Source: an uncultured Lentisphaeraceae bacterium (GTDB lineage Bacteria > Verrucomicrobiota > Kiritimatiellia > RFP12 > UBA1067). From it: a stretch of DNA of 64,000 nucleotides. The DNA lies in assembly GCA_964636295.1 (NCBI GenBank), contig CAZWQY010000004.1:42677-106676 (forward strand), given 5' to 3'. This document shows positions 21,593 to 47,405 of the stretch, one piece after another. Numbering within the stretch: the stretch's first letter is position 1; every line of letters begins with the position of its first letter. The notes beneath the pieces were generated by a model. The model saw only the letters and a program-made list of their open reading frames with translations. It was not told the DNA's origin and ran no database searches. The translations under genes were made by a program, and so were the position numbers.

Positions 21593-21642
21593 CCAAACCT
21601 CCAAACCCCCAAACCTCCAAACCCCTAAACCCCCAAACCTCC
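21593..21642. repeat. CCAAACCT-family 8-nt tandem array (about 6 units) abutting the aroF ATG
   Basis: CCAAACCT CCAAACCC CCAAACCT CCAAACCC CTAAACCC CCAAACCT CC, then ATG at 21644. Confidence 0.9.
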
Positions 21643-21643
21643 C

Positions 21644-22666
21644 ATGATCATCCTTCTCAAGAAAAACGCGGATTCGGGCCAGGTCGAGAACCTGAAGAGC
21701 CTGCTCCGCTCGCGCGGCGTCGAGCCGCATGAATCCGTCGGCTCGCTGCAGACCGTCATCGGCTGCGTCGGCGATGTCGCGCACATCGACCCCGGCATTC
21801 TCGAAGCCCTGGACGTCGTCGAGCAAGTCCAGCGCGTGCAGGAGCCGTACAAGGCCGCGAACCGCAAGTTCCATCCCGAAGACTCGGCGATCGACTGCGG
21901 CGGCGTGACGATCGGCGGCGGCGGATTCGGCGTCATCGCGGGCCCCTGCAGCGTCGAGTCGGAGGAGCAGGTCGTCGGCATCGCGAAGGCCGTGAAGGCG
22001 GCGGGCGCGACGCTTCTCCGGGGCGGCGCGTTCAAGCCGCGCACGTCGCCCTACGCCTTCCAGGGCCTCGGCAAGGTCGGGCTGGACATGCTTTCGACGG
22101 CGAAGAAGGAGACGGGGCTTCCGATCGTCACGGAACTCATGGACTTCCGCGACATCGAGCTCTTCAACGACGTGGACGTCATCCAGATCGGCGCGCGCAA
22201 TATGCAGAACTTCAACCTCCTCAAGGAAGTCGGCGCCTACACGAAGAAGCCGATCCTGCTCAAGCGCGGCATGAGCGCGACGCTGCAGGAACTCCTGATG
22301 AGCGCCGAATACGTCATGGCCTCCGGCAACCCGAACGTCATTCTCTGCGAACGCGGCATCCGCACGTTCGAGACGGCCCTGCGCAACACGCTCGACCTCG
22401 GCGTCGTGACGATGCTCCGGCGGCTCTCGCACCTGCCGATCGTCATCGATCCGTCGCACGCGACGGGCCATGCCTACATGGTCGATTCGGTCGCCGTCGC
22501 CGCGACGGCCATCGGCGCGGACGGGCTTATCATCGAAGTGCACAACGACCCGCCGCACGCGAAGTGCGACGGCGCGCAGAGCCAGACGCCCGACATGTTC
22601 GCGCGCACGATGGAGAAGGTGCGCGACGTGCGCGCGCTCGTCACGAAGTGGAACGAAAGGACGTAA
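21644..22666 (+). CDS. aroF: 3-deoxy-7-phosphoheptulonate (DAHP) synthase, class I-beta with N-terminal regulatory domain
   Basis: 340 aa; ...GGGGFGVIAGPCSVESEEQVVGIAKAVKAAGATLLRGGAFKPRTSPYAFQGLG... Confidence 0.9.
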   Translation: MIILLKKNADSGQVENLKSLLRSRGVEPHESVGSLQTVIGCVGDVAHIDPGILEALDVVEQVQRVQEPYKAANRKFHPEDSAIDCGGVTIGGGGFGVIAGPCSVESEEQVVGIAKAVKAAGATLLRGGAFKPRTSPYAFQGLGKVGLDMLSTAKKETGLPIVTELMDFRDIELFNDVDVIQIGARNMQNFNLLKEVGAYTKKPILLKRGMSATLQELLMSAEYVMASGNPNVILCERGIRTFETALRNTLDLGVVTMLRRLSHLPIVIDPSHATGHAYMVDSVAVAATAIGADGLIIEVHNDPPHAKCDGAQSQTPDMFARTMEKVRDVRALVTKWNERT

Positions 22667-25383: not shown

Positions 25384-26681
25384 AACGGCATCTGATTGGC
25401 ATTGGCGGCGTCGGCATGAGCGCGCTCGCGACGACGCTCCTGAAACTGGGCGACACCGTCACGGGCGCGGATCGGACGCGGGACACGCCTAACGTTCGCT
25501 TTCTTGAGTCGCTGGGCGTCGCGGTCTTTCCGGACGACGGCAGCGGCATTGACGCAACGACGGACGAGGTCATCGTCTCGACGGCCATCGAGGAGACGAA
25601 CGCGGGTCTGCAGGCGGCGCATGCGCGCGGCATCCCCGTCACGCACCGGGCGAAGGCTCTCGCACGCGCGTTGCAAGGTCACAGGCTCGTCGCCGTCGTC
25701 GGGACATGCGGCAAATCGACGGTAACGGCCATGCTGGGGCATATCCTGTCCGAATGCGGGCTGGATCCGCTCTGCGTGAACGGCGCGAACGTGCCGGGGT
25801 GGGACGGCGCCGTCCGATTCGGACAGGGCGCGTATGCCGTCGCGGAAGTGGACGAAAGCGACAAGTCGCTCGTCGCGTTCAGCCCCTATGCCGCCATTGT
25901 CACCAACGCCTCGGCCGACCACTACTCCAAGGAGGAGATGGACGCGGTCTTCGATGCCTTCATCGCGGACTGCCAAGGACCCGTCATCGACGGCAGAGGC
26001 CCGTTGGACACCTGGACATTTGGGCTGTTGGAGGTTCCCGTGCCGGGACAGCACAACCGGCAAAACGCCGAACTGGCCGTGCGCATGGCCGTCGCGCTCG
26101 GCGTGGCCCCCGAAGCGGCCGTCGCCGCGATGAAGACGTTCAAGGGCGTCGAGCGTCGCCTCCAGCGCATCCTCCCATCAAACGTCCAAACCTCCAAACT
26201 CCCAAACCTCCAAACGTCCAAACCTCCAAACTCCCAAACTCCTAAACCGTCCCCTGCCGTCTACGACGACTACGCCCACAATCCGGAAAAGATTAAGGCC
26301 ATGTGGACGACGCTCGCGGCGGAGTATCCGCAGGGCCTCTGCGTGATCTGGCGGCCGCATGGATATGCCCCGCTTCGCAAGATGTGCGCCGCGCTGGCGA
26401 CAATGTTCGCCGAGACGATCCGTCCGCAGGACAGGTTGCTGCTTCTGCCCGTCTACGACGCGGGCGGCACGACCGACCGCTCGATCAATTCGGATGCCTT
26501 GGCCAAGGCGATTGCCGACGCAGACGCCGCCGTCGGCGCGCGCGTGTCAGTTGTCGCCGATCTGGACGCGGCGCAGGACTGGTGTGCCGCGCATCCGACG
26601 GCATTCGGCTGTTTCGTGACATGCGGCGCACGCGACCCAGGGCTGCCCGTGCTGGCCCAACGGCTCGCGCAGATGGGCTAA
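25380..26681 (+). CDS. murC: UDP-N-acetylmuramate--L-alanine ligase family protein (MurC/Mpl)
   Basis: 433 aa; IGIGGVGMSALA, VVGTCGKSTVTAM, DDYAHNPEKI; GTGA overlap with the upstream gene. Confidence 0.8.
   Translation: MKRHLIGIGGVGMSALATTLLKLGDTVTGADRTRDTPNVRFLESLGVAVFPDDGSGIDATTDEVIVSTAIEETNAGLQAAHARGIPVTHRAKALARALQGHRLVAVVGTCGKSTVTAMLGHILSECGLDPLCVNGANVPGWDGAVRFGQGAYAVAEVDESDKSLVAFSPYAAIVTNASADHYSKEEMDAVFDAFIADCQGPVIDGRGPLDTWTFGLLEVPVPGQHNRQNAELAVRMAVALGVAPEAAVAAMKTFKGVERRLQRILPSNVQTSKLPNLQTSKPPNSQTPKPSPAVYDDYAHNPEKIKAMWTTLAAEYPQGLCVIWRPHGYAPLRKMCAALATMFAETIRPQDRLLLLPVYDAGGTTDRSINSDALAKAIADADAAVGARVSVVADLDAAQDWCAAHPTAFGCFVTCGARDPGLPVLAQRLAQMG
26178..26249. repeat. CCAAACCT-family tandem array, 9 x 8 nt = 72 nt, in frame inside the murC-like gene
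   Basis: TCAAACGT CCAAACCT CCAAACTC CCAAACCT CCAAACGT CCAAACCT CCAAACTC CCAAACTC CTAAACCG, translated SNVQTSKLPNLQTSKPPNSQTPKP. Confidence 0.9.
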
Positions 26682-26687
26682 GGCGAC

Positions 26688-27863
26688 ATGACGGTCATTC
26701 ATCTCGTTCCGGCGATGGAGCAAGGCGGCGTCGAGACCGTCGTCTGCGACTTGAATCGCGCGCTTGTCCGAGCCGGATGGCGATCGGTCGTCATCTCGAA
26801 AGGCGGGCGGCTCGTGGCGCAGGTGCGCGGCGACGGCGGCGAACACCTCGCGCTTGACCTCAAGTCGAAGAATCCGCTGACGGTACTCGTTCGCGCGTGG
26901 CGCCTGCGAAAGGAGTTGCGTGCGTTGGCGACACGCGGCGAGCCGCTTCTCGTCTGCGCACATTCGCGCGTTCCGGCCTGGCTGTTCATTCTCGCCCGCC
27001 GTCTGGATGCGTTCATTCGCCCATCCGTCCATTCGCGCGCTCGGCCTCCTGCCCATTCGATCATTCGATCATTCGACCATTCGATTATTTCTTCTCTCCC
27101 CTTCATCACATACGCACACGGGGCGAATTCCGTCTCGCGCTATTCGGCGGTGATGACAAAAGGCGACCGCGTCATCACGCCCTCGCGATTCCTCGCGGAC
27201 TATCTGACGCGGAACTATCCGACTGCAGACAACCTCCGCGCACGCCTCCGCGTCATTCATCCAGCCGTTGACTTCGCGCGTTTTGACCCGGCGGCTCTCG
27301 ATGCGCATGTCGTGGCGCAACTGCGGCACGACTGGGGACTCAAGCCGGACGACCGCGTCGTCATGGCCGTCGGACGCATCACGCCGCTCAAGGGCTTCGA
27401 CCATCTGATTCGCGATCTCGCGGGGAAATTGGACGTTACGCCCGACGCGGCGTGGGGCGACGCCCTGCGCGCGCCGCAGACGAAGCTTGTCCTCGTGGGC
27501 GGGGCCGATCGGGACAAGACGGGTCTTCTCGCCGCGCTCAAGGCCCTCGCCGCCTCGCTCGGCGTGGCAGACCGCGTCATTTTCGCGGGAGCGCAGACGC
27601 ACATTCCCGAATGTCTCTCTCTGGCCGATCTCGTCGTTTCGGGGAACGTGACGAAGCCCGAATCGTTTGGGCTTTCGGTCGCCGAAGCGTTGGCAATGAA
27701 CCGTCCCATCCGCCTCCTGCGACGCTTCGGCGGCGCGGCGGAGATTCTCGACGCGGTCGCGGCAACGCAACAGCCGACGCGGCGCGAAGCCGTTCGCGCG
27801 CTCTGCGATTTTGATATAATGTCTCGAAAGACAGTGGCCGTTTACGAGGAGCTTGTCAGGTGA
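26688..27863 (+). CDS. Glycosyltransferase family 4
   Basis: 391 aa; MTVIHLVPAMEQGGVETVVCDLNRAL..., C-terminal E-x7-E type region (ESFGLSVAEALAMNRP). Confidence 0.85.
   Translation: MTVIHLVPAMEQGGVETVVCDLNRALVRAGWRSVVISKGGRLVAQVRGDGGEHLALDLKSKNPLTVLVRAWRLRKELRALATRGEPLLVCAHSRVPAWLFILARRLDAFIRPSVHSRARPPAHSIIRSFDHSIISSLPFITYAHGANSVSRYSAVMTKGDRVITPSRFLADYLTRNYPTADNLRARLRVIHPAVDFARFDPAALDAHVVAQLRHDWGLKPDDRVVMAVGRITPLKGFDHLIRDLAGKLDVTPDAAWGDALRAPQTKLVLVGGADRDKTGLLAALKALAASLGVADRVIFAGAQTHIPECLSLADLVVSGNVTKPESFGLSVAEALAMNRPIRLLRRFGGAAEILDAVAATQQPTRREAVRALCDFDIMSRKTVAVYEELVR
27013..27092. repeat. CCATTCGA-family 8-nt array (about 10 units) inside the GT4 coding sequence
   Basis: TCATTCGC CCATCCGT CCATTCGC GCGCTCGG CCTCCTGC CCATTCGA TCATTCGA TCATTCGA CCATTCGA TTATTTCT. 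Confidence 0.85.
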
Positions 27864-37309: not shown

Positions 37310-38262
37310 GCCGAAACCCCTTTGTCAATGATGCCGCCGCCGACCACTTCGTCGCCGCGATAGAAGACGGCGGACTGCCCGGGCGCCACGCCCGAAAGGC
37401 CGTCCTTCAGAAGGCGCGGTTCGCCCGCACTGCGAATCTTGACGGGCAGGGACAGGTCGATTTCGCCGACGCACTCCCGCAACGTCAACGCGCGGCAGAC
37501 AGACTCCTCCTTCGTGCCGACCCAGACGATGTTCTGCGCGGCATCCAGCCCCACCACGTAATACGGCGTGCCGCCTCCAATGCCAAGGCCCTTGCGCTTG
37601 CCGACCGTGTAGTTCCAAACGCCTTGATGCGTGCCGAGAACCCGACCGTCAGACACGCGCACGATGTTCCCCGTCTGCGGCGAAGCCCCGACGATTGCCC
37701 GCACATCCCCGCCGCAGAAGTCCTGGCTGTCGTCCCGGTCTGCGGCCGCAAATCCGGCTTTCCGTCCGATTTCCCGCACGGCGCACTTTGTCAGTTCGCC
37801 CAACGGGAAAATCGTGCGCGCACGAATCTTCGGCGCGACACGGTAAAGAAAATACGACTGATCCTTCGAACGGTCGGCCGCGCGGAAAAGCCGTCCGTCC
37901 CGCAGACGCGCGTAATGCCCCGTCGCAAAGCGGTCGCACCCCAGCGTCTCGAATGCCCAGCGCGGCAGAAGCCCGAATTTCACGAACTCGTTACAGCGAA
38001 TGCACGGGTTCGGCGTCCGTCCGCCCCGATAGGATTCGGCCACATAGGCAAGGACATGACGCGACCAATCGGACGCCAGATCGGCGACTTCGAGGGGAAT
38101 GCCCAACCGCGTCGCGACCTCCCGCGCCTCGCCCAGCGTCTTCGCCTCGGTTTCCCGCCCCAACGACATCGTCACCCCGACGACCTCGTGCCCCTGCTCC
38201 TTCAGGAGAAGGGCGGACACGGCGGAGTCAACGCCGCCCGAAAGTCCCACGGCAATCTTCAC
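37306..38262 (-). CDS. mnmA: tRNA 2-thiouridine(34) synthase MnmA
   Basis: PP-loop VKIAVGLSGGVDSAVSALLL; start placed at GTG 38262 (GTGA overlap with the ybeY stop); ATGA overlap with the dxs start. Confidence 0.88.
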   Translation of the reverse strand: MKIAVGLSGGVDSAVSALLLKEQGHEVVGVTMSLGRETEAKTLGEAREVATRLGIPLEVADLASDWSRHVLAYVAESYRGGRTPNPCIRCNEFVKFGLLPRWAFETLGCDRFATGHYARLRDGRLFRAADRSKDQSYFLYRVAPKIRARTIFPLGELTKCAVREIGRKAGFAAADRDDSQDFCGGDVRAIVGASPQTGNIVRVSDGRVLGTHQGVWNYTVGKRKGLGIGGGTPYYVVGLDAAQNIVWVGTKEESVCRALTLRECVGEIDLSLPVKIRSAGEPRLLKDGLSGVAPGQSAVFYRGDEVVGGGIIDKGVSA

Positions 38263-38735
38263 ACGCGCGCCTCCCAGTCCTTCAGCCAAGCCAGTTCCCG
38301 CCGCCGCATGCGCCGATAGTCCAGCGGCTCAAGATCGTCCGCCCCCGAAAGATGATCCATCCCGTGCGCGACGTAGAGAAGCAGTTCCTTCGCCGCGCTC
38401 CAGCCCCGACGCTTCGGCGCGACGCGGATGGCCTGGTCGCAGTTGACGTAAAGCTCGCCATAGACGCCTGACGCCTCGCCCGGCATCGGATCGTAGCGTT
38501 GGGTCACGACATCCGTCGCGCCCGCCGCGCCATTGATCGCCAAATGGACTTCGGACGAAAACGCATCGTCCTGCAGGACGACCGTCACCGCGCGAAACGG
38601 CTCGCCGATGCGCGCCGCGCTCCGCGCCGCAAAAAAGGCCGCCGCCCGACGAAGCTGCGCGCGCGGCAACGCCAATGCGCGCGGCAACGCGCCCGCGATC
38701 TCAATGCGGCAACCGTTCTCTGTTCGCGCGCTCAT
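38259..38735 (-). CDS. ybeY: rRNA maturation RNase YbeY
   Basis: 158 aa; VAHGMDHLSGADD metal-binding motif region. Confidence 0.8.
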   Translation of the reverse strand: MSARTENGCRIEIAGALPRALALPRAQLRRAAAFFAARSAARIGEPFRAVTVVLQDDAFSSEVHLAINGAAGATDVVTQRYDPMPGEASGVYGELYVNCDQAIRVAPKRRGWSAAKELLLYVAHGMDHLSGADDLEPLDYRRMRRRELAWLKDWEARV

Positions 38736-39271
38736 CTCGGCATCTCGGACGAAAGCGCGCCCACCTGCTTCTGCGCATCGGCGATGGCGCGGCAGACGGC
38801 GCGCGAGGTAATCGTCGCAGACGTGATGGCCTCAATGACGCCGCCATCCTTCTTTACCGCAAGTGCCGCGCCGTCCTTCCCAGAAAACTGATCCGCGAAT
38901 TCTGGGGCATTGAGCTTCATCCCCAAGCCCGGCGTCTCGGCGGCGGCAAGCGTCTTGTAGCAGACGAGCGTCTTCCGGTCTGCCCTGAAGCCGACCATCA
39001 GCACAATGTCGCCGCCATAGCCACCCGCGTCTGTGCCCTTCGCGGCATAGCCGACCACCCGCCCCGCCGCATCCTTTCCGACAAAGACCGCCCCCACCGC
39101 CGCAACCGTCGCCGTCTCGGACGGCAGAACGGCCTTGACGGCATTCTGCTCGTTCGCGGCGGCCGTCGCGGCAATCGGCTCTTTCGTCAGGGCGTTCACG
39201 TAGGCAAGCACCGCCGCACAGACGCCAGAGATGAGCGTCAGGGAAAGGACAAGCGAGAGATTCTTCTTCAT
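38732..39271 (-). CDS. rnfG: Rnf complex subunit G
   Basis: 179 aa; N-terminal TM, FMN-attachment motif ITSATITSRAV. Confidence 0.88.
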   Translation of the reverse strand: MKKNLSLVLSLTLISGVCAAVLAYVNALTKEPIAATAAANEQNAVKAVLPSETATVAAVGAVFVGKDAAGRVVGYAAKGTDAGGYGGDIVLMVGFRADRKTLVCYKTLAAAETPGLGMKLNAPEFADQFSGKDGAALAVKKDGGVIEAITSATITSRAVCRAIADAQKQVGALSSEMPR

Positions 39272-39287
39272 GCGTTCACCACCTCAA

Positions 39288-39346
39288 TCATTCGTTCACC
39301 ATTCGACCATTCGATCATTCGAACATTCGATTATTCGATTCTTTCC
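39288..39346. repeat. CCATTCGA-family 8-nt array between rnfD and rnfG
   Basis: TCATTCGT TCAC CATTCGA CCATTCGA TCATTCGA ACATTCGA TTATTCGA TTCTTTCC. Confidence 0.9.
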
Positions 39347-39347
39347 C

Positions 39348-40298
39348 TCATTTCCCGCCAAACGGCTTCGGCTGCGTCCAGCGGTTGATCAGCGGCGCAA
39401 CGGCGTTCATGATGAGGATCGCAAACGAGCAGCCTTCGGGATAGGCGCCGAACTGGCGGATCAGCATGCAGAGAAGTCCGCAACCGCAGCCGAAGACGAG
39501 CTTGCCCTTCGCCGTCGTCGGCGAGGTGACGTAATCCGTCGCCATAAAGCACGCGCCGATCAGGATGCCGCCCGTAAGGATCTCGACATGCGCAGGAGCA
39601 CGTCCTGCGAGAAGCGCGTAGACGGCAACCGTCGCCAGAAACGCAACGGGAATGTGCCAGGTGATCACCTTGCGGGCGAGCAGGTAGACCGCACCCAGCG
39701 CGAGCGCAAGCGCCGAGACCTCTCCGATACAGCCCGGCATGTTGCCGACGAGAAGATCCCAAAGGCCAGGGACCTGCTCTGCGGGGCCCTGCTTCACGAA
39801 CGCGAGCGGCGTCGCCGTCGTCATCGCGTCGGGCGTCTTCCACCAGAAGGGCTTGAGCCATGTCGTCATCGGACCCGTGAACGAGATAAGCATGAATGCG
39901 CGCGCGGCGAGGGCCGGATTGAACGGGTTCATGCCCAGGCCGCCGAAGACCTGCTTCGCGATGCCAATGGCGAAGACAGAACCGACGACGGCCATCCACA
40001 GCGGAAGCCCCGCCGGCAAGTTAAGCGCGAGGAGAAGCCCCGTCACGACGGCCGAGAGGTCGCCGATCGTGTTCTCGCGCTTCATCGCCAAGCGGCAAAG
40101 GGCCTCGGTCACGAGACATGTCGCAACGCACGTCGCAATCGTCCAGACGGCGGGAAGCCCAAAGAACCAGACGCCCGCCGCCGCCGTCGGCAGCAAGGCG
40201 ATGATCACGTCGAGCATGATGCGCGAGACGGAGCTCTTCGCATGCGTGTGCGGCGAACTGGAGAGGAGGTAATGTTCAGCTGTTTCTTTCGGTTTCAT
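39348..40298 (-). CDS. rnfD: Rnf complex subunit D
   Basis: MKPKETAEHYLLSSSPHTHAKSSVSRIMLDVIIALLP...; start moved from 40493 to ATG 40298. Confidence 0.9.
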   Translation of the reverse strand: MKPKETAEHYLLSSSPHTHAKSSVSRIMLDVIIALLPTAAAGVWFFGLPAVWTIATCVATCLVTEALCRLAMKRENTIGDLSAVVTGLLLALNLPAGLPLWMAVVGSVFAIGIAKQVFGGLGMNPFNPALAARAFMLISFTGPMTTWLKPFWWKTPDAMTTATPLAFVKQGPAEQVPGLWDLLVGNMPGCIGEVSALALALGAVYLLARKVITWHIPVAFLATVAVYALLAGRAPAHVEILTGGILIGACFMATDYVTSPTTAKGKLVFGCGCGLLCMLIRQFGAYPEGCSFAILIMNAVAPLINRWTQPKPFGGK

Positions 40299-40359
40299 GG
40301 ACGACTTGAGAGGAGAATAAGATAACGGGACAAACGAATGGGGCTGGGCGAAAGTGCCG

Positions 40360-41742
40360 CTAGTTGGCCTTCGCGGCGGCGGCCTTGGCCCGTTCGGCCG
40401 CGAGACGCGCACGAATCGAGGCCTTCGCACGACGGCAGGACTGGGTAATCGGACGGTACGCCGGGCAGCCAAACGTGCAGGCGCCGCACTCAATGCAGCT
40501 CATGACGTGCGCCGCTTCGGCGGAGGCGATGTCGTTCGCCTCGACGGCCTTGGCGATTTCCGCCGCATTAAGTCCCATCGGACAGGCGCGCACGCAGCGA
40601 CCGCAGTTGATGCAGGCCTGCGACGAATACTGGAAGACCCGGCGGCGCGACAGGAGCAGAAGCCCTGACGTCGTCTTCGTCGTCGCTAGCCCCAGCGTCG
40701 GCACGGCAAAGCCCATCATCGTGCCGCCGGAAATGACCTTCACGGGAGATTCCGCCTCGCCTCCGCAGAAAGCGATGAGATCGGCATATTTCGTGCCGAG
40801 CGGGGCCTCGACGTTTTTCGGCTCGCGCACGGCGTCACCGGAGACGGTCGTCACGCGCGAAAGCAGAATCGTGCCCTTCTCGACCGCATCCGCGACCGCC
40901 GCGACCGTGCCGACGTTCTCGACGACGCAACCGACGTCAATCGGCAACGCGGGCGGCTCCGGGACGAGGCGTCCGACCGTTGCGTAGATCTGGTGCTTTT
41001 CAGAGCCTTGCGGATAGAGGACGGGAAGAACGACGATCTCGACATTGCCGTCGATGTCCGCAAACGCCCGCTCCAGCGCGGCGATGGCCTCGGGCTTGTT
41101 CGCCTCGACGGCGATGCGCACGGCGCAGCCTCCGAGAATCTTGCGCAGGATCTCGACCCCCACGCGAACGCGATCCGCCCGCTCCAGCATGAGGCGGAAG
41201 TCCGCACAAAGGTACGGCTCGCACTCCGCGCCGTTCACGATCAGGTATTCGCACCGCTTGTTCGGCGGCGGATTGAGCTTCACGCACGTGGGGAAGCCCG
41301 CGCCGCCCATGCCGCACAGACCGGACTCGTCGATGCGCGCCAAGAGCTCGTCCCGCGTCGCGACCTGCCAGTCCAGCGGCGGAAGCGTCCGCGCCGTCGT
41401 GTCCACGCCCTCCGGCACTGGGGCCGTCGTGTCGAGGATGACCGCCGGGGCCTTGCCGCCCGCCGGGCCGAGACGCGGCTCGACCGCCTTGACGAGACCG
41501 TTCGCGGGCGCATGGACGGGAACGGAAATGAAGCCATTTCGCGCGCCCAGAAGCTGGCCCTTGACCACGTACTCGCCCGCCTTGACGACACATGTCGCGG
41601 GCGCGCCGAGATGCTGGCTCATCGAGACGACCAGCTCGGCGGGACACGGCATCGCCTCGATCGCCTTCCCGCGCGCCAGTTCCTTGTTGTAGTCGGGGTG
41701 GACGCCACCCCGAAACCTAAATGCACTTTTCACTGTCTTCAT
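40360..41742 (-). CDS. rnfC: Rnf complex subunit C
   Basis: MKTVKSAFRFRGGVHPDYNKE..., two 4Fe-4S motifs CINCGRCVRACP and CIECGACTFGCP; start ATG 41742 overlaps the upstream stop (ATGA). Confidence 0.92.
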   Translation of the reverse strand: MKTVKSAFRFRGGVHPDYNKELARGKAIEAMPCPAELVVSMSQHLGAPATCVVKAGEYVVKGQLLGARNGFISVPVHAPANGLVKAVEPRLGPAGGKAPAVILDTTAPVPEGVDTTARTLPPLDWQVATRDELLARIDESGLCGMGGAGFPTCVKLNPPPNKRCEYLIVNGAECEPYLCADFRLMLERADRVRVGVEILRKILGGCAVRIAVEANKPEAIAALERAFADIDGNVEIVVLPVLYPQGSEKHQIYATVGRLVPEPPALPIDVGCVVENVGTVAAVADAVEKGTILLSRVTTVSGDAVREPKNVEAPLGTKYADLIAFCGGEAESPVKVISGGTMMGFAVPTLGLATTKTTSGLLLLSRRRVFQYSSQACINCGRCVRACPMGLNAAEIAKAVEANDIASAEAAHVMSCIECGACTFGCPAYRPITQSCRRAKASIRARLAAERAKAAAAKAN

Positions 41743-43130
41743 GACATCTTCTCCAAAACCTCCCAATGCCCCGTCTTCGGCGGCCCGACACGACGGATGC
41801 GCGCATCCGCTTGCAATTCCTTTAACCGCGCGGCAATCGTCCGAGGTGAAACCTGCAGGATTTCCGCCAACTCATCTTTCGTGATAAAGGGATCGGCTTT
41901 CATATTCTGCACAATTTGCAGAGACAATGAATCATGACGATTCATGCCTATCGTGCAATCCGCATCCCTAAGCGTGGAATTTACGGTGCAAGAACTATTC
42001 GTTATCTTAAGATATTCGTCGGCTTTAACGCCAAATTCCAAGATTTGTGAAATCCGTTTCTGTGTAAAATCTTCGATTCGTTCCAAGCGTTCCGCCGGCA
42101 GATTGTAACGCTTGTGACGACGGAAGCGAAAGCCGTGCAACCGCCGAACACGCGCAATCTGCTCATCGGAAAGCGAGGGCCCGTGAAATTTCAACCAATC
42201 AGCGTAGAGAGCCGGTCGAACACGACTGACGAACCGTCTGAGATCATCGAACTCGTTGAATGCGCCGCCTGGCTGCCACGTCGCCAAGGAGAACAGTCCA
42301 TAGCCGTTGTCAAAGACAGGTGCCGCGCCAACAATTTCGTTCGTGTCATTGTCAACGAGATAACCGAAATTACCCATATGCCGATCCGTATTAAAGATCA
42401 CGGCATCCAGCAAGAATATATCGGCAAACCGCGGATCCTTCAAAGCCTCCTCGCGCGAGAGGAGTCGTCCAGCAGGAAGATACCCATATTTGTCGCTCGT
42501 GAAGAGCGGACATGTCGAACACAACCGCCCCTTGAACATTGAAAGCCCGTATGGGACAAAATCAATTCCCATCACCTCTGCTAACTGCGCGGCATAGAAT
42601 TCAGAATAAGGCTCGAACCCTGCATTCAAAGCCCCCGTCGTCCCCGACTTATACAACTCAACAACGCCCCCCCGACGCCGCCAGCACTTCGCGAGCATGC
42701 CGTTCGTCGTCAATTCCGGCGAAGACGTCCATGCATCAGGAACGCCAGGCCCCAATCCCGTGAATGCAATGGCCGAAACAACTTCTGAAAAGCGATTCTC
42801 GTAGAGGTTGTAATCTCGCCACCGACCCGCGAAGCGATCCTCGACGACCCAGAAAACATCATTCAGCGAGAGACCTCGACAAATGCGAATGATCCCCCGC
42901 AAATCTCGCGCATCCAATCCTAATCGTGCCATCAGGTCTTCAATGTAGGCGCGATGCTTCGGCACGACGCGATGCTTGAGCCAACGCCAAAGGCCCTCGT
43001 CCGTCGCCTCGCCATGCATGTCGAGCGGCAAGAACCGCACGGCCGCATCGTTCACCGAGACAATGCGCACGCCCTGCGGTTCAAGCCACTCGAACCGCAG
43101 AACCTCCGTGTCTCGATGCTTCAGAATCAT
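41739..43130 (-). CDS. HipA-like Ser/Thr kinase fused to a C-terminal winged-HTH domain
   Basis: 463 aa; HipA_C catalytic motif NTDRHMGNFGYL and PVFDNGYGLFS; C-terminal ITKDELAEILQVSPRTIAARLKELQADARIRRVG; AT-richer than the flanking rnf genes. Confidence 0.8.
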   Translation of the reverse strand: MILKHRDTEVLRFEWLEPQGVRIVSVNDAAVRFLPLDMHGEATDEGLWRWLKHRVVPKHRAYIEDLMARLGLDARDLRGIIRICRGLSLNDVFWVVEDRFAGRWRDYNLYENRFSEVVSAIAFTGLGPGVPDAWTSSPELTTNGMLAKCWRRRGGVVELYKSGTTGALNAGFEPYSEFYAAQLAEVMGIDFVPYGLSMFKGRLCSTCPLFTSDKYGYLPAGRLLSREEALKDPRFADIFLLDAVIFNTDRHMGNFGYLVDNDTNEIVGAAPVFDNGYGLFSLATWQPGGAFNEFDDLRRFVSRVRPALYADWLKFHGPSLSDEQIARVRRLHGFRFRRHKRYNLPAERLERIEDFTQKRISQILEFGVKADEYLKITNSSCTVNSTLRDADCTIGMNRHDSLSLQIVQNMKADPFITKDELAEILQVSPRTIAARLKELQADARIRRVGPPKTGHWEVLEKMS

Positions 43131-43939
43131 TAGTGACCCGTCTCAAAATGGGGATCGACGGCGATGCACTTCGCCGGACACTTCGCGGCGAGCTGCTCGT
43201 CCGTCGGCGGATTCGCATAGTTGACCTTCGCAAGAAATCCCGAAAAGGCGAAGTGCCCCGCCTCCTTGCCGCCGGAATTCTTCTCGCAGAGATGACAGCC
43301 GATGCAGCCGACGCCACAGACCGTGCGGACGGACGGTCCCTTGTCCGGATTCGCGCAGAGGACATGGATCGTGGCAGACGCCGGCACAAGCTCGATGAGG
43401 TGTCGCGGACAGACGGCCACGCACTTGCCGCAGCCGATGCAGAGCCGCTTGTCAACCTTCGCAAGGCCGTCCGAAATCGAAATCGCGTGCTTCGGACAGG
43501 CGTTCGCGCACGCGCCGTAGCCGAGGCAGCCGTAGGCGCAGCCCTTGTCGCCGCCGGCCGTCGCCGCCGCGACGCCGCAGTCGCAGATGCCGTTGTAGTC
43601 GCCGACGCGAATCGTCTCCGACCGCGTCCCGCAGCACCGGACGAGCGCGACGCGCTTCTCCGTCGCCGTCGCCGCGACGCCCAGGATCTTCGCGACCGCC
43701 GCCGCACAGGCATCGCCGCCCGCCGCGCAGGCGCCGTTGGGCGCCGTGCCCGCGACGAGCGCGCGCGCGTAGCCATCGCATCCCGCAAAGCCGCAGCCGC
43801 CGCAGTTGGCGCCGGGGAGGGCCGCCGTGACGAGTCCGATGCGCGGGTCTTCCCGCACGGAAAGATACCGGTCGGCCAGCGCAAGCGCAATGGCCGCGAC
43901 AAGCCCGATGCCGGCGATGATGAGAATGGCTGTTGTCAT
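43130..43939 (-). CDS. rnfB: Rnf complex subunit B
   Basis: 269 aa; MTTAILIIAGIGLVAAIALALADRYL..., NCGGCGFAGCDGYA, ferredoxin motifs CIGCGKCVAVCP. Confidence 0.92.
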   Translation of the reverse strand: MTTAILIIAGIGLVAAIALALADRYLSVREDPRIGLVTAALPGANCGGCGFAGCDGYARALVAGTAPNGACAAGGDACAAAVAKILGVAATATEKRVALVRCCGTRSETIRVGDYNGICDCGVAAATAGGDKGCAYGCLGYGACANACPKHAISISDGLAKVDKRLCIGCGKCVAVCPRHLIELVPASATIHVLCANPDKGPSVRTVCGVGCIGCHLCEKNSGGKEAGHFAFSGFLAKVNYANPPTDEQLAAKCPAKCIAVDPHFETGH

Positions 43940-43974: not shown

Positions 43975-44715
43975 TCAATCGACGATCTCAATCCAAGCCG
44001 GATCAAAACCGATATCCGTCAAAACATCCTCACGACAAACCATCGGAGGTTTCTTCAAGCGAATCTTCAGCCGCTTCTCCGGCATTTCCGGCAACACCGT
44101 AAATTGCGACCCATGCGGCTGCCAAGTAAAGCAATGACGATCTGTCGAAATCTCATACCCTTCCAAATTATGGGCGTCATTCCAATCCCACTTGAACGCC
44201 GTGGGTTCAAATGCGCGCGTGGGGATCTCGGCGACGGCAAAGTTCCGCAACGCCTCGTCACGAATCAAAATGGCCGTCCGCAAGTCTGAGAACAACTTCG
44301 CCTCTTTCTCCAGACGCGCATTCCAAATTCCGAGGACAAGCCCGCCGATCTTGTTCGGATCTTCGACATGAACATTTTTCACGTCAAATGAATAATCCAC
44401 GGAATTCCGGCCCGAAACTAGACGCACGTGTTCATGTGTAAACGGGTGCGCGTTCTTGATGGTCTTGGCGCTCCATGCCGTCCGCCCACAAACGACATCT
44501 TCCAGTCCGACATTGGATTTCTTCCACTCAACGCCCACGCACCGCGCAAAGATCTGCTCCCAGTCATCTCCGCTGATGTCAGGATTGTCCCGCGTCGCAA
44601 GAATGTAAATCAACTCCTTCCCCAACTTGAGCCCAAAATCAGCCGGGAATTCGTTCAGCGGATACGGCGGTTTGTGCCGCACGGCATTTCTCAACCTTGG
44701 CTTCATCATTCGCAT
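43975..44715 (-). CDS. Putative type II restriction endonuclease (family not assigned)
   Basis: 246 aa; 10-nt overlap with the dcm stop; AT-rich; LEDVV...TAWSAKT could be a PD-(D/E)XK core. Confidence 0.55.
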   Translation of the reverse strand: MRMMKPRLRNAVRHKPPYPLNEFPADFGLKLGKELIYILATRDNPDISGDDWEQIFARCVGVEWKKSNVGLEDVVCGRTAWSAKTIKNAHPFTHEHVRLVSGRNSVDYSFDVKNVHVEDPNKIGGLVLGIWNARLEKEAKLFSDLRTAILIRDEALRNFAVAEIPTRAFEPTAFKWDWNDAHNLEGYEISTDRHCFTWQPHGSQFTVLPEMPEKRLKIRLKKPPMVCREDVLTDIGFDPAWIEIVD

Positions 44716-46265
44716 TCCTTGAGATGTGAGATGACTTCCTTTGCGACGGCCTGGATGACCGGGACAGCAACGGAGTTCCCCGTCTGGTGCTTGACTTGAG
44801 TGTACGGAACAACGATTTGAAATTCGTCGGGAAACCCCTGTATGCGCAGCATCTCGCGCGCGGAAGGCCGACGCTCGTCGTTGATGAGAATGTAATTGGC
44901 CGAAGCCCCGGCCCGCAGCGCACAGGAGAACGGATGCGGCGTAATTGACCCCGCGACATTCTCGTGCGAAATGTAAGGGCGAGGGTACGCCTTGTCCTTC
45001 AAGCGCGCCAATCGACTTTCGCGAATCGCAGGACGCACGAACAACGAGCGGTCTCTTGAGGCCGATTCGTCGATGATGTCCGCCACGGTTTTGCGCTGCT
45101 CCTTCGGAATCGGCGGCGGGAACTCAAAGTTCACCTTCTTGCGGAAACCGCAGATGATGATACGCTCCCGCTTTTGCGGAACGCCATAGTCAAGTGCGTT
45201 CAAGACCTTGTAGTGAACATCATAGCCCGCCTTCTTGAGATGGGATAAAATGACCTTAAACGTCCGCCCCTTGTCGTGTGCGGTGAGATTGCGCACATTC
45301 TCCAGCATGAACGCCTTGGGCTTCTTGGCAAGGAGAATATTTTCAATATTGAAAAAGAGAGTTCCCTGCGTCTCGTGCTTAAACCCCTCTTTGTCGCCGA
45401 TGATGGAAAAAGGCTGACAGGGGAAGCCGGCCAGCAGAATGTCAAAGTCAGGGAGGGAAACCGGATCGATTTTCTGGATATCGCCGAACGGACGTTCGCC
45501 AAAATTGGAGTAATAAGTCTTCGCCGCATCCTTGTCCCATTCGGATGAAAAGACGCATCGCCCGCCATTGAGCTGATAGCCAAGCCGAATGCCGCCAATC
45601 CCCGCAAAGAGGTCGATAAACGTGAACGAACCGTTCGCGGGGGCGGGGAAGGGGAACCTTGTAGCCTCATCCAACTTAAACTTGCCAAGAAAATCCATCT
45701 GCTCCCCCGGCTCACAGACACGCAATGCCCGCTGCGGCACTTTCGCGAGAATTGTCGGGAGCCGATTCTTAAGGTCAAGGTCTTTGCGGTCGGGCGATTC
45801 AAGGTAGGCCTTCAATTGCCGCGCGACCTTTGGCGAACGCTTCACGAAATCCGACACCCGCACGATCACGCGCTTGACCTCTGCGGCAAGCGCGGTCGAA
45901 GAGTTCGCGGGCGCAGAGGTCGGCCGAACACGATAAAGGAGATACATGCCCTCGCCGTGCGCCCGGCCTTTCGCCGGATAGCCCCAGTCTTGCACAAGCA
46001 CGTCGCGCGTAAACTGCCCGACAAACTCGGCCTGAAAGTACTTCGCGTCCTTGGTGCCGTTGAAAAGCCAGATTTCGTTAACCGTCTTCGCCGCAGTGGC
46101 ATCGACCGCATCCCCCGCCACGAGCGGATAGTTGTAGAATCCAGGCCAGCGCGCAAACTGCCCCTCCTTGTACGTTCCGACGAGAACGACCTTCTTCGCC
46201 GTCTCACCGCTTTGAGCCTCACACGAGGCTCGCCGCGTCATCTTCTTCTGCCCAATTCGTCCCAT
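44706..46265 (-). CDS. dcm: DNA (cytosine-5) methyltransferase with an unassigned ~200-aa N-terminal extension
   Basis: Motifs I FIDLFAGIGG, IV GFPCQPFS, VI LENVRNL, VIII PQKRERIIICGF, X GNSVAVPV. Confidence 0.92.
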   Translation of the reverse strand: MGRIGQKKMTRRASCEAQSGETAKKVVLVGTYKEGQFARWPGFYNYPLVAGDAVDATAAKTVNEIWLFNGTKDAKYFQAEFVGQFTRDVLVQDWGYPAKGRAHGEGMYLLYRVRPTSAPANSSTALAAEVKRVIVRVSDFVKRSPKVARQLKAYLESPDRKDLDLKNRLPTILAKVPQRALRVCEPGEQMDFLGKFKLDEATRFPFPAPANGSFTFIDLFAGIGGIRLGYQLNGGRCVFSSEWDKDAAKTYYSNFGERPFGDIQKIDPVSLPDFDILLAGFPCQPFSIIGDKEGFKHETQGTLFFNIENILLAKKPKAFMLENVRNLTAHDKGRTFKVILSHLKKAGYDVHYKVLNALDYGVPQKRERIIICGFRKKVNFEFPPPIPKEQRKTVADIIDESASRDRSLFVRPAIRESRLARLKDKAYPRPYISHENVAGSITPHPFSCALRAGASANYILINDERRPSAREMLRIQGFPDEFQIVVPYTQVKHQTGNSVAVPVIQAVAKEVISHLKECE

Positions 46266-46310: not shown

Positions 46311-46898
46311 TCAATACGGCAACTTCACAAGCCCGCTGAAGCCCATGAACGCGAGGCTCAGGAGACCGCCCGTGACAAGCGCCACGGCAATGCCCCGAAA
46401 ACAGCGCGGCGGATCGGCGTGCGCGAGCTTCTCGCGAATGCCCGAGAAAATCAGCAGCGCGACGCCGAATCCGAGCGCGGCCGAAAACGAGAAGAAGACC
46501 GACTCGAAAAAGCCCGTGCCCTGCTTGCAGTTGATCTCCGCAACGCCCAGGACGGCGCAGTTCGTCGTGATGAGCGGCAGGAAGATGCCCAGCGCGGCAT
46601 GAAGCGGCGGCAAAAACCGCTTCATCGCGATGTCAATGAACTGCACCAGCGCGGCGATGACGAGGATGAAGGCGAGCGTATGGATGTAGCCCAGCCCGTT
46701 CGGCTGAAGCAGCCAATGGTCGAGACACCACGTCACGGCCGCCGCGACCGTCATGACGAAAATGACCGCCCCCGACATGCCGAGCGCCGTCTCCGTCTTC
46801 TTCGAAACGCCCAAAAACGGACAACAGCCCAAAAAGCGGCTGAGCACGAAGTTGTTCACCAGCACCGCGCCGACAAGGATCATCAAGTAGTAGCTCAT
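46311..46898 (-). CDS. rnfA: Rnf complex subunit A
   Basis: 195 aa; MSYYLMILVGAVLVNNFVLSRFLGCCPFLGVSKKTETALGM... collinear with E. coli RsxA. Confidence 0.93.
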   Translation of the reverse strand: MSYYLMILVGAVLVNNFVLSRFLGCCPFLGVSKKTETALGMSGAVIFVMTVAAAVTWCLDHWLLQPNGLGYIHTLAFILVIAALVQFIDIAMKRFLPPLHAALGIFLPLITTNCAVLGVAEINCKQGTGFFESVFFSFSAALGFGVALLIFSGIREKLAHADPPRCFRGIAVALVTGGLLSLAFMGFSGLVKLPY

Positions 46899-46919
46899 AG
46901 ACAGTCACCTATTATGGAT

Positions 46920-47405
46920 TTATTCGGAAAATCTGTCAAGCCCGCCGCTTCGCCCCAAAGCCGCCGCGTCCTCCGCCCCCGGCTGGAAGGCCGTGAGCGC
47001 GCCCGACGCGACCGCACGCCCGGACGCCTCCCGAATCGAGCAGTCAAACGAGCCAAACTCCTCGTCCTGGAACGTGCAGGCCACGCGCACGCAGTAGCGC
47101 GCCCCCGACCGAAACGCCGGAATCCGGACGTCGAGCCGACGCGAACCCAGCACAAAGCCGATCTGAGGCGGAAGCCCCTTCCGCCGACGAAGAAGGCCGA
47201 CACACAGCGCCATCGTCTGCGCCATATACTCCAGCGCAACGCACCCCGGCACACCGTCCAACGTCGGCTCGAAGAACGGCGCCTGCGGCGTGACGTCGAC
47301 GAACGCCTCGACCGCCGCCTCGTCGGCGGGCGGCACATAGTCCGACAACAGCACCATCGGCCGCGCCTGCGGCAGAAGCTCGTCCAGCGGAATCTTCTCC
47401 GTCAT
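46920..47405 (-). CDS. Hotdog-fold (FabZ/ApeP-like) dehydratase
   Basis: MTEKIPLDELLPQARPMVLLSDYV...GCVALEYMAQTMA...; start moved from 47552. Confidence 0.6.
   Translation of the reverse strand: MTEKIPLDELLPQARPMVLLSDYVPPADEAAVEAFVDVTPQAPFFEPTLDGVPGCVALEYMAQTMALCVGLLRRRKGLPPQIGFVLGSRRLDVRIPAFRSGARYCVRVACTFQDEEFGSFDCSIREASGRAVASGALTAFQPGAEDAAALGRSGGLDRFSE

Follow-up and report, generated by a model that had tools for sequence, protein, structure and literature searches.

How is a toxic kinase restrained when no antitoxin accompanies it? This question is posed by the single-chain Hip kinases, of which HipH/YjjJ is, to our knowledge, the only experimentally characterized member. It arises again at a locus of an uncultured Lentisphaeraceae bacterium, a gut member of the Kiritimatiellae (GenBank assembly GCA_964636295.1, contig CAZWQY010000004.1). 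The stretch analyzed is 64,000 nucleotides (nt) in length and is referred to as the window. It carries a gene encoding a 463 amino acid (aa) kinase fused to a C-terminal winged helix-turn-helix (wHTH) domain, and this gene lies between rnfB and rnfC of an rnf operon. An original prediction made from the sequence alone had described a HipA-type kinase without a separate antitoxin, embedded in the operon and possibly acting in persistence or abortive infection. The gene is interpreted here, with a probability of roughly 0.6, as a conflict-system cassette that encodes a single-chain toxin-type kinase and would ride on rnf expression. This interpretation was reached because of the homology of the protein, the company kept by its family and the population pattern at the locus. 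Such a cassette may have roles in persistence, toxicity or abortive infection.

Gene and Operon Structure

The 463 aa gene and its overlaps with both neighbors (TAATG and ATGA) were read directly in the sequence as originally described. At the upstream junction (...GGTCAC TAATG ATT...) the last A of the rnfB stop codon TAA is also the A of the kinase start codon. At the downstream junction (...GAG AAG ATG TCA TGA) the kinase stop codon and the rnfC start, ATGAAGACAGTG, share the four bases ATGA, and a Shine-Dalgarno-like GGAG for rnfC lies within the last kinase codons. The rnfC start at 41745 (MKTVKSAFRF) agrees with the RnfC N-termini of relatives, and the kinase N-terminus MILKHRD is kept throughout its subfamily. 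The peptides NTDRHMGNFGYL, VFDNGYG and ITKDELAEILQVSPRTIAARLKELQADARIRRVG were all present in the translation of the open reading frame (ORF). The kinase gene has a GC content of 0.535 and a GC content at third codon positions (GC3) of 0.597. The corresponding values are 0.684 and 0.837 for rnfB and 0.669 and 0.831 for rnfC, and the rnf genes overall range from 0.61 to 0.68 in GC and from 0.79 to 0.85 in GC3. The gene is AT-richer, as had been noted, and is not host-like in composition. No separate helix-turn-helix (HTH) or antitoxin gene was found beside the kinase, both neighbors being rnf genes. HipA proper would be expected to have an adjoining HipB (XRE-HTH) antitoxin gene, and no such gene or other small HTH ORF adjoins the kinase. 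The description of a kinase and wHTH fusion lacking an adjacent antitoxin gene held.

A strong promoter-like site was seen in the operon region only upstream of rnfA. Judged by consensus match alone, this putative site is likely to be the operon promoter. No terminator-like site was seen between rnfB and rnfC. Together with the junction geometry, these two features are what co-transcription and translational coupling would produce. The kinase is predicted to be co-transcribed with the rnf genes and translationally coupled to rnfB and rnfC. The embedding that had been claimed was thus seen directly, and the claimed co-transcription and co-translation are consistent with these features.

Kinase Fold and Catalytic Motifs

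The protein was divided into an N-terminal domain, a kinase core, a linker and a C-terminal wHTH (Table 1). Its structure was modelled with AlphaFold2 (AF2) from an alignment of 60 sequences to which members of 42-50% identity had been added. The model had a predicted local distance difference test score (pLDDT) of 80.9 and a predicted template modelling (TM) score of 0.78. An earlier model from a shallow alignment (65-94% identity) had a pLDDT of 58 and was discarded. In the N-terminal domain pLDDT ranged from 63 to 97 by 10-residue block and was at least 90 at aa 1-50 and 91-100. When the model was compared to the PDB with Foldseek, the top 27 matches were CtkA, HipA, HipT and PI4K-IIalpha, all with a probability of 1.00. 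CtkA ranked first (7e-7, TM to target 0.5-0.58) and was followed by HipA of Shewanella and E. coli (from 2.5e-5, approximately 460 aligned columns, TM 0.42-0.52) and then by HipT and PI4K-IIalpha. The confident N-terminal alpha/beta domain may be equivalent to N-subdomain 1 of HipA, as suggested only by the length of the Foldseek alignments. A PDB sequence search returned Helicobacter pylori CtkA as the sole kinase match, both for the window protein alone (1.5e-4) and for the family profile (2e-10).

Only the HTH scored above the Pfam thresholds in the window protein (HTH_24 at residues 401-441, 5e-6, and also HTH_11) and Couple_hipA gave no match. The best PADLOC match was PDC-M03A at 9e-11, confined to residues 235-279. 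Among the relatives, P0200 passed the Pfam HipA_C model at 41 bits, and P0121 reached 18.6 bits against the NCBIfam YjjJ model NF007297, which has a cut-off of 401.

The kinase core contains a Ser/Thr-rich segment ahead of the equivalent of the Gly-rich loop (S136 S137 P E x T141 T142 N G x L x K148). It also holds K161, E173 and E177 in invariant or near-invariant alignment columns. The Ser/Thr-rich stretch and the Gly-rich-loop region were modelled with very low confidence. Conservation was assessed in an alignment of 35 members with 33-58% identity to the window protein. K148, K161, E173, E177, D242, R250, H251 and G276 were invariant and N247, D249, N254, F273 and D274 were at least 90% conserved. 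In an hhalign comparison that served for residue mapping only, D249-x-H251-x-x-N254 was mapped to D309-x-H311-x-x-N314 of HipA and D274 to D332. By the modelled fold of its core the protein is assigned to the HipA/CtkA kinase superfamily, and by alignment it has the predicted catalytic D-x-H-x-x-N and Mg-binding Asp of that superfamily. The catalytic machinery looks intact, and kinase activity and toxicity of the protein are predicted. The original term HipA-type applies only at the superfamily level, as the Pfam HipA_C score was below its cut-off, only CtkA was found by sequence in the PDB and the hhalign probabilities with HipA and HipH were weak.

States of the rnfB-rnfC Junction

The junction was surveyed with RnfC and RnfB as probes and the genes were mapped by tblastn. 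All of the loci surveyed, which are given L numbers, were metagenomic and approximately 15 lineages were informative. In every outgroup (L015, L016, L017, L021, L040, L055, and L115 to L124) rnfB abuts rnfC. The two genes also abut in the close relatives L113 and L013, the latter having 92% identity to the window in RnfA and 88% in RnfB. The insert is lacking in L013, L113 and L017 and in every deeper locus of the Kiritimatiellia and Lentisphaeria, in agreement with the insertion first proposed. A kinase gene occupies the junction in the window, L001 to L004 (89% identity), L010 (80%), L262 (62%), L263 to L265 (60%) and L011 (54%). In the close relative L112 (RnfB 89%) a 524 aa AAA_35/NPHP3_N-type STAND-like NTPase (1377-2951) replaces the kinase and overlaps the rnfC start. 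This NTPase had no PADLOC match. On two short contigs that end before rnfC, a type IIG restriction-modification gene follows the kinase (L107, PADLOC 1e-113) and a 722 aa ORF precedes the kinase downstream of rnfB (L108). The original suggestion that embedding stabilizes the gene was not simply borne out, as the junction has empty states, divergent alleles, other cargo and operon breaks.

The operon is broken at the junction in L109, L111 and L012. In L012 (1-2957) rnfC opens its own unit. In L109 and L111 the break lies downstream of 8810, and in L111 rnfB is followed by alaS and further housekeeping genes. As rnfAB and rnfCDG are split in some members of the clade, the junction is also a rearrangement breakpoint.

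In a tree of RnfA and RnfB the occupied clade was supported at 98%. Its interior was not resolved and the junction states were interspersed. Neighbor-joining trees of the kinase and of RnfA and RnfB were poorly resolved within the clade, so a single ancestral insertion with losses and allele swaps could not be told apart from several independent insertions. From these comparisons the kinase gene is judged to be a horizontally acquired insert and not a lineage-wide operon component. The rnfB-rnfC junction is most likely a cargo hot spot in one clade of gut and rumen Kiritimatiellae, a reading supported also by the restriction-modification genes at the rnfA-rnfB junction of the window and L010.

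Allele Discordance and Selection

Locus L262 is among the closest relatives of the window by its Rnf proteins. RnfA, RnfB and RnfC were 93, 92, and 91% identical to those of the window, the TAATG and ATGA junctions were identical and the kinase was 62% identical. Nucleotide identity to the window was 0.77-0.88 in rnfB. It was 0.84 over the opening 100 nt of the kinase gene and fell to 0.48-0.74 in the remaining kinase body. For rnfC, of which 1.1 kb was compared, it was 0.64-0.88 overall and 0.79-0.89 within the initial 300 nt. The nucleotide identity of L002 to the window was also mosaic (0.67-0.95). In L011 the Rnf proteins were 80-91% identical to those of the window and the kinase 54%. Copies of the wHTH subfamily outside rnf were 64-67% identical to the window protein and so are closer to it than the L011 and L262 alleles. 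Two allele clades, approximately 55-62% identical to each other, share the rnfB-rnfC junction. Such a pattern points either to a fixed locus at which old, divergent alleles have been exchanged or to repeated insertion. Locus L011 (CAVGIZ010000147.1) is labelled Anaerovoracaceae, which is probably a binning error in a public metagenome-assembled genome.

The ratio of nonsynonymous to synonymous substitution rates (omega) between the window and its relatives was 0.05-0.10 for the whole kinase gene, the same as for rnfA, rnfB and rnfC. By part, omega was approximately 0.06 in the N-terminal domain, 0.05 in the core, 0.05-0.1 in the wHTH and approximately 1 in the linker. By these ratios the N-terminal domain, core and wHTH are each under purifying selection and the linker is evolving neutrally. 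Purifying selection like that on the rnf genes argues that the kinase gene is functional.

The Wider Kinase Family

A scan of 1.84 billion representative proteins gave 3732 clusters at E ≤1e-3, and more than 6000 non-redundant family proteins were retrieved. Gut and rumen metagenomes are rich in members of the family. Most sources leave these proteins unnamed or label them "transcriptional regulator." Most members are approximately 375 aa long and match residues 1-365 only, and therefore lack the HTH. The C-terminal wHTH form is one subfamily, and other members bear an N-terminal HipB-like XRE HTH or an AAA_33 domain.

Members of approximately 375 aa were found in about 20 IMG/VR viral contigs and in gut phage records, and family members were also found on plasmids of Helicobacter, Campylobacter and Clostridium. 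On a Helicobacter cinaedi plasmid the kinase gene lies one gene downstream of MazEF and immediately upstream of a Fic gene. In the abundant Firmicutes members P0337 and P0296 the kinase start is overlapped by an upstream gene encoding a 65-66 aa Phd/YefM antitoxin. At the P0296 loci (L096, L097, and L099) the pair has Gabija as its neighbor, with GajA (3e-233) and a helicase gene of the UvrD family, and P0337 is next to the gene for an SMC/AAA ATPase. Several of the Phd/YefM-kinase loci also have transposase genes in the vicinity. PDC-M03A matched P0337 at 1e-17 over residues 144-367. No consistent Phd-like ORF was found upstream of the homologues on viral contigs, so the Phd pairing is not family-wide.

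Outside rnf, copies of the wHTH type form monocistronic units in the vicinity of HipBA, ParE/Phd and PIN modules. In L005, L100, and L105 a conserved TTTGGTATAAT promoter element is located 10-25 nt before the ATG, and this element is absent from the rnf-embedded copies. No palindromic operator common to the monocistronic copies and the rnfA upstream regions was found, only the TTTGGTATAAT element being conserved. The genes flanking the non-rnf copy in L005 had no Pfam match. A protein tyrosine phosphatase (PTP)-type phosphatase, whose gene follows that of the kinase after 8 nt in L100 and after 2 kb in L005, was considered as an antagonist partner and rejected. It has no homologue in the window and is probably exported, as it carries a signal peptide and a lipobox.

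Proposed Mechanism and Alternative Explanations

The window protein would be a Ser/Thr-type kinase of the HipA/CtkA fold with an N-terminal lid-like domain, its core tethered to the wHTH by a flexible, neutral linker. The cassette would be one allele of a mobile, allelically hypervariable element at the rnfB-rnfC cargo hot spot. The window copy, apparently without a promoter of its own, would be transcribed through read-through from the rnfA promoter and translated through coupling to rnfB and rnfC. The kinase may phosphorylate a cellular target and so cause growth arrest in a toxin-antitoxin or phage-defence role. By analogy, restraint would be exerted in cis without a separate antitoxin, through autophosphorylation beside the Gly-rich loop (S136/S137/T141/T142), through the DNA-bound wHTH, or through both. 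A broader proposal is offered tentatively and is considered somewhat doubtful. It states that the rnf junctions of this Kiritimatiellae clade are a defence hot spot and that the kinase-wHTH protein is an undescribed single-chain abortive-infection or toxin module. Strains would exchange its highly diverged alleles through recombination within the conserved flanking genes rnfB and rnfC. Cargo (restriction-modification systems, the STAND-like NTPase and the kinase gene) would be spliced frame-tight and would borrow the expression of the operon. The wHTH would be a cis regulator or DNA sensor and not an autorepressor.

A number of observations weigh against the toxin-type cassette. The window protein scored 17.7 bits against the Pfam HipA_C cut-off of 30.5. 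In NCBIfam it had no relevant match and the YjjJ model NF007297 was unmatched. When the family profile was aligned with HipA or HipH of E. coli as single sequences, the hhalign probabilities were weak (15-23%). The Phd/YefM pairing was seen in one Firmicutes subgroup only, the viral loci lacking it. Viability would be hard to explain if a toxic kinase were made constitutively from an energy-conservation operon with no antitoxin, unless the kinase limited itself, as is proposed by analogy. The sharing of one junction by both allele clades could instead reflect a specific functional tie to Rnf.

Such a tie is central to the main rival, a domesticated Rnf-linked regulator. The kinase-wHTH protein would here be non-toxic and made stoichiometrically with RnfB and RnfC, and it would phosphorylate an Rnf subunit or metabolic target or tune transcription to redox. 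This explanation is considered unlikely. The occupation of one junction in several lineages by two divergent clades would suit a regulator, as would the tight start and stop overlaps with the rnfC Shine-Dalgarno sequence inside the last kinase codons and the lack of an antitoxin gene at the window locus. Purifying selection of rnf strength, which includes the wHTH despite there being no own promoter to autoregulate, points the same way. A domesticated gene is difficult to reconcile with the absence of the kinase from all outgroups and from L013 and L113, where RnfA and RnfB are 88-92% identical, and with the other cargo or operon break at the junction in some relatives. The atypical GC3 of the kinase and its mosaic identity, with alleles at 54-62% and flanks at 80-93%, also argue against it. 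Furthermore, members of the same subfamily that are not linked to rnf have a promoter of their own and lie amid toxin-antitoxin modules, and the wider family occurs on plasmids, on phages and in defence islands.

Down to 33% identity, the catalytic Asp, His and Asn, the Mg-binding Asp, and two Lys and two Glu residues show little or no variation, and they align with the catalytic residues of HipA. This makes it improbable, more so than the regulator, that the protein is a pseudokinase transcription factor or scaffold, that is, a DNA-binding protein with a non-catalytic kinase-like domain. The HTH is also absent from most family members. Homologues are labelled "XRE family transcriptional regulator," "HTH domain-containing protein" and "transcriptional regulator," as a pseudokinase would predict, but these labels are automatic annotations and not tests. 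The HTH being the only domain above the Pfam threshold in the window protein and the very low confidence of the modelled Gly-rich-loop region also favor a pseudokinase. Finally, a low-GC gene could have been joined to the rnf genes by metagenome mis-assembly or binning. The window and most of the comparison loci come from metagenome assemblies, and the Anaerovoracaceae label of L011 is implausible. An artefact is nevertheless highly improbable, as the order rnfB-kinase-rnfC with its codon overlaps recurs in independent NCBI, ENA and Logan assemblies (L001-L004, L010, L011, L262, and L263-265), and the sequences vary between assemblies while the reading frames are conserved. The single-chain toxin-type cassette is preferred to each of these explanations.

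Other Features of the Window

The features of the window and of the comparison loci are listed in Table 1. On the minus strand the order is rnfA, the C5 methyltransferase gene and the 246 aa ORF, rnfB, the kinase gene, rnfC, rnfD, rnfG and ybeY. No rnfE homologue was found anywhere in the 64 kb window. In the deeper relatives L015, L016, and L124 rnfE follows rnfG, unlike the window cluster, in which A-B-C-D-G is followed directly by ybeY (38259-39348).

A second low-GC insert, missed in the original prediction, is located at 43975-46265 on the minus strand between rnfA and rnfB, one junction upstream of the kinase. It comprises the C5 methyltransferase gene, whose product has an N-terminal extension of approximately 200 aa, and the 246 aa ORF. 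The 246 aa ORF had no match in Pfam, NCBIfam, PADLOC, PHROGs or plasmids and is possibly the cognate restriction enzyme, a guess from its position. The rnfA-rnfB junction has no insert in most loci, and in L001 to L004, L011 and L013 the spacer is approximately 46-100 nt. In L010 it holds another type II methyltransferase (8.5e-64).

Intergenic arrays of 7-9 nt tandem units (CATTCGAT, CCAAACCC, and AGGTTTT) were observed in these Kiritimatiellae. In L263 and L102 the arrays are followed by reverse-complement arrays, so that long hairpins are possible. In L263, L108, and L102 the arrays border the kinase cassette or other cargo. They may serve as insulators, terminators or recombination sites.

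Table 1. Location of features in the window and in comparison loci.
Feature	Location	Strand	Details
Kinase-wHTH gene	41739..43130	-	463 aa, HipA/CtkA-superfamily kinase (predicted); ORF list, Pfam, PADLOC, PDB search, AF2, Foldseek
N-terminal domain, aa 1-100	42831..43130	-	Three-stranded sheet and helices; AF2 model
Kinase core, aa 101-374	42009..42830	-	Conserved columns in alignment; omega 0.05
Catalytic loop N247-T-D249-R-H251-M-G-N254	42369..42392	-	Aligns with HipA D309-x-H311-x-K313-N314
Mg-binding motif F273-D274-N-G276	42303..42314	-	D274 on HipA D332
Linker, aa 375-399 (25 aa)	41934..42008	-	Low pLDDT, disordered; omega approximately 1
C-terminal winged HTH, aa 400-460	41751..41933	-	Three helices and beta wing; AF2 model; Pfam
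rnfB	43130..43939	-	NCBIfam RnfB 2e-62; TAA stop, one base common with kinase ATG (TAATG)
rnfC	40360..41745	-	TIGR01945 6e-141; ATG overlaps kinase TGA (ATGA)
rnfA	46311..46898	-	First gene of the operon in the window; Rnf-Nqr family in orthologous loci
Sigma-70-like promoter TTGACA-17-CATAAT (putative)	46911..46939	-	11/12 consensus matches; just upstream of rnfA
rnfD	39348..40322	-	ORF list, locus comparison
rnfG	38732..39271	-	Last rnf gene in the window; ybeY next
C5 cytosine DNA methyltransferase	44706..46265	-	519 aa; Pfam DNA_methylase 3e-89; PADLOC MTase_II 3e-110; GC3 0.69
246 aa ORF	43975..44715	-	Overlaps methyltransferase stop by 10 nt; GC3 0.63
Tandem-unit arrays, window	39300-39339, 27054-27089, 21593-21644, 26179-26252		
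Tandem-unit arrays, relatives	L263 4720-5000; L102 5516-6003; L108 340-420 and 2595-2660		
Phd/YefM and 374 aa HipA/CtkA-like kinase pair	L091-L099 3804-5125		

Comparison With Known Systems

The nearest described logic is that of HipH/YjjJ, a monocistronic HipA-homologous kinase of E. coli K-12 with an N-terminal HTH (PMC8262856). A monocistronic Hip kinase family with a C-terminal HIRAN domain has also been described (PMC8262856). A single-chain Hip kinase with a fused DNA-binding domain was thus already known, and the kinase-HTH fusion cannot be regarded as the new regulatory logic that had been suggested. The HIRAN family is presumably the one named HipL. HipH resembles the window protein in being a single chain with a Hip-type core and an HTH and no adjacent antitoxin gene. 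Both have a conserved Ser/Thr beside the Gly-rich loop (PMC8262856). The layout of HipH is also that of the window-protein relatives with an N-terminal HipB-like XRE HTH. In the window protein, however, the HTH is a C-terminal winged helix (400-460) behind a neutral linker, whereas that of HipH is N-terminal and XRE-type. The window protein did not match NF007297 and the hhalign probability with HipH was 23%. HipH is a stable chromosomal gene in its own operon, whereas the window kinase is a variable cassette inside another operon.

CtkA (JHP0940) of H. pylori (PDB 3akj, 3akk, and 3akl) is the closest solved relative by both sequence and fold. The xDRHxGNxG catalytic loop and the APxFDxG Mg site occur in both CtkA and the window protein. 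CtkA is 325 aa long without a fused HTH, and the sequence alignment spans only residues 174-286 of the window protein. CtkA has been described as a secreted pro-inflammatory kinase, and its gene presumably lies in a variable (plasticity-zone) region. HipA and the HipBST kinase have the overall fold in common with the window protein, whose catalytic and Mg-binding residues align with those of HipA. The window locus differs from HipBA and HipBST in having no HipB or HipS partner. Some relatives of the window kinase, like HipBA, have an overlapping upstream antitoxin-type gene, but this is of the Phd/YefM type. The 2021 Hip kinase phylogeny makes no mention of a Phd or YefM partner (PMC8262856).

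The PADLOC candidate PDC-M03 consists of a HipA-like kinase and a HIRAN protein (PMC13245101). In PDC-M03 and the HipL-type family, as in the window protein, a Hip-type kinase is joined by a C-terminal or adjacent nucleic-acid-binding module. The module in the window is a wHTH and not HIRAN, and the PDC-M03A models are 280-305 aa long and lack an N-terminal domain of approximately 140 aa. No HIRAN domain, the PDC-M03B partner, was found in the Pfam scans, and the window kinase is flanked by rnfB and rnfC.

The family provides a natural comparison set for the question of restraint, as it includes a bare core behind Phd/YefM, an N-terminal XRE HTH form and a C-terminal wHTH form. The last of these is available for comparison in both own-promoter and promoter-less in-operon versions. 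Defence islands and hot spots resemble the rnf sites in carrying variable cargo between conserved flanks, with empty and occupied states and allele exchange. Unlike defence islands, the rnf sites are intergenic junctions within a bioenergetic operon, and their cargo has overlapping stop and start codons and apparently no promoter of its own. Junctions inside an essential-looking bioenergetic operon can serve as exchangeable cargo sites (alleles 54-62%, flanks 80-93%). Hot-spot-based discovery of defence genes looks between operons and would therefore miss such in-operon sites. Compared to HipH and the HIRAN family, the window gene is set apart by its family, which is CtkA-like with an N-terminal domain, by the kind and placement of its DNA-binding domain and by its promoter-less position inside another operon.

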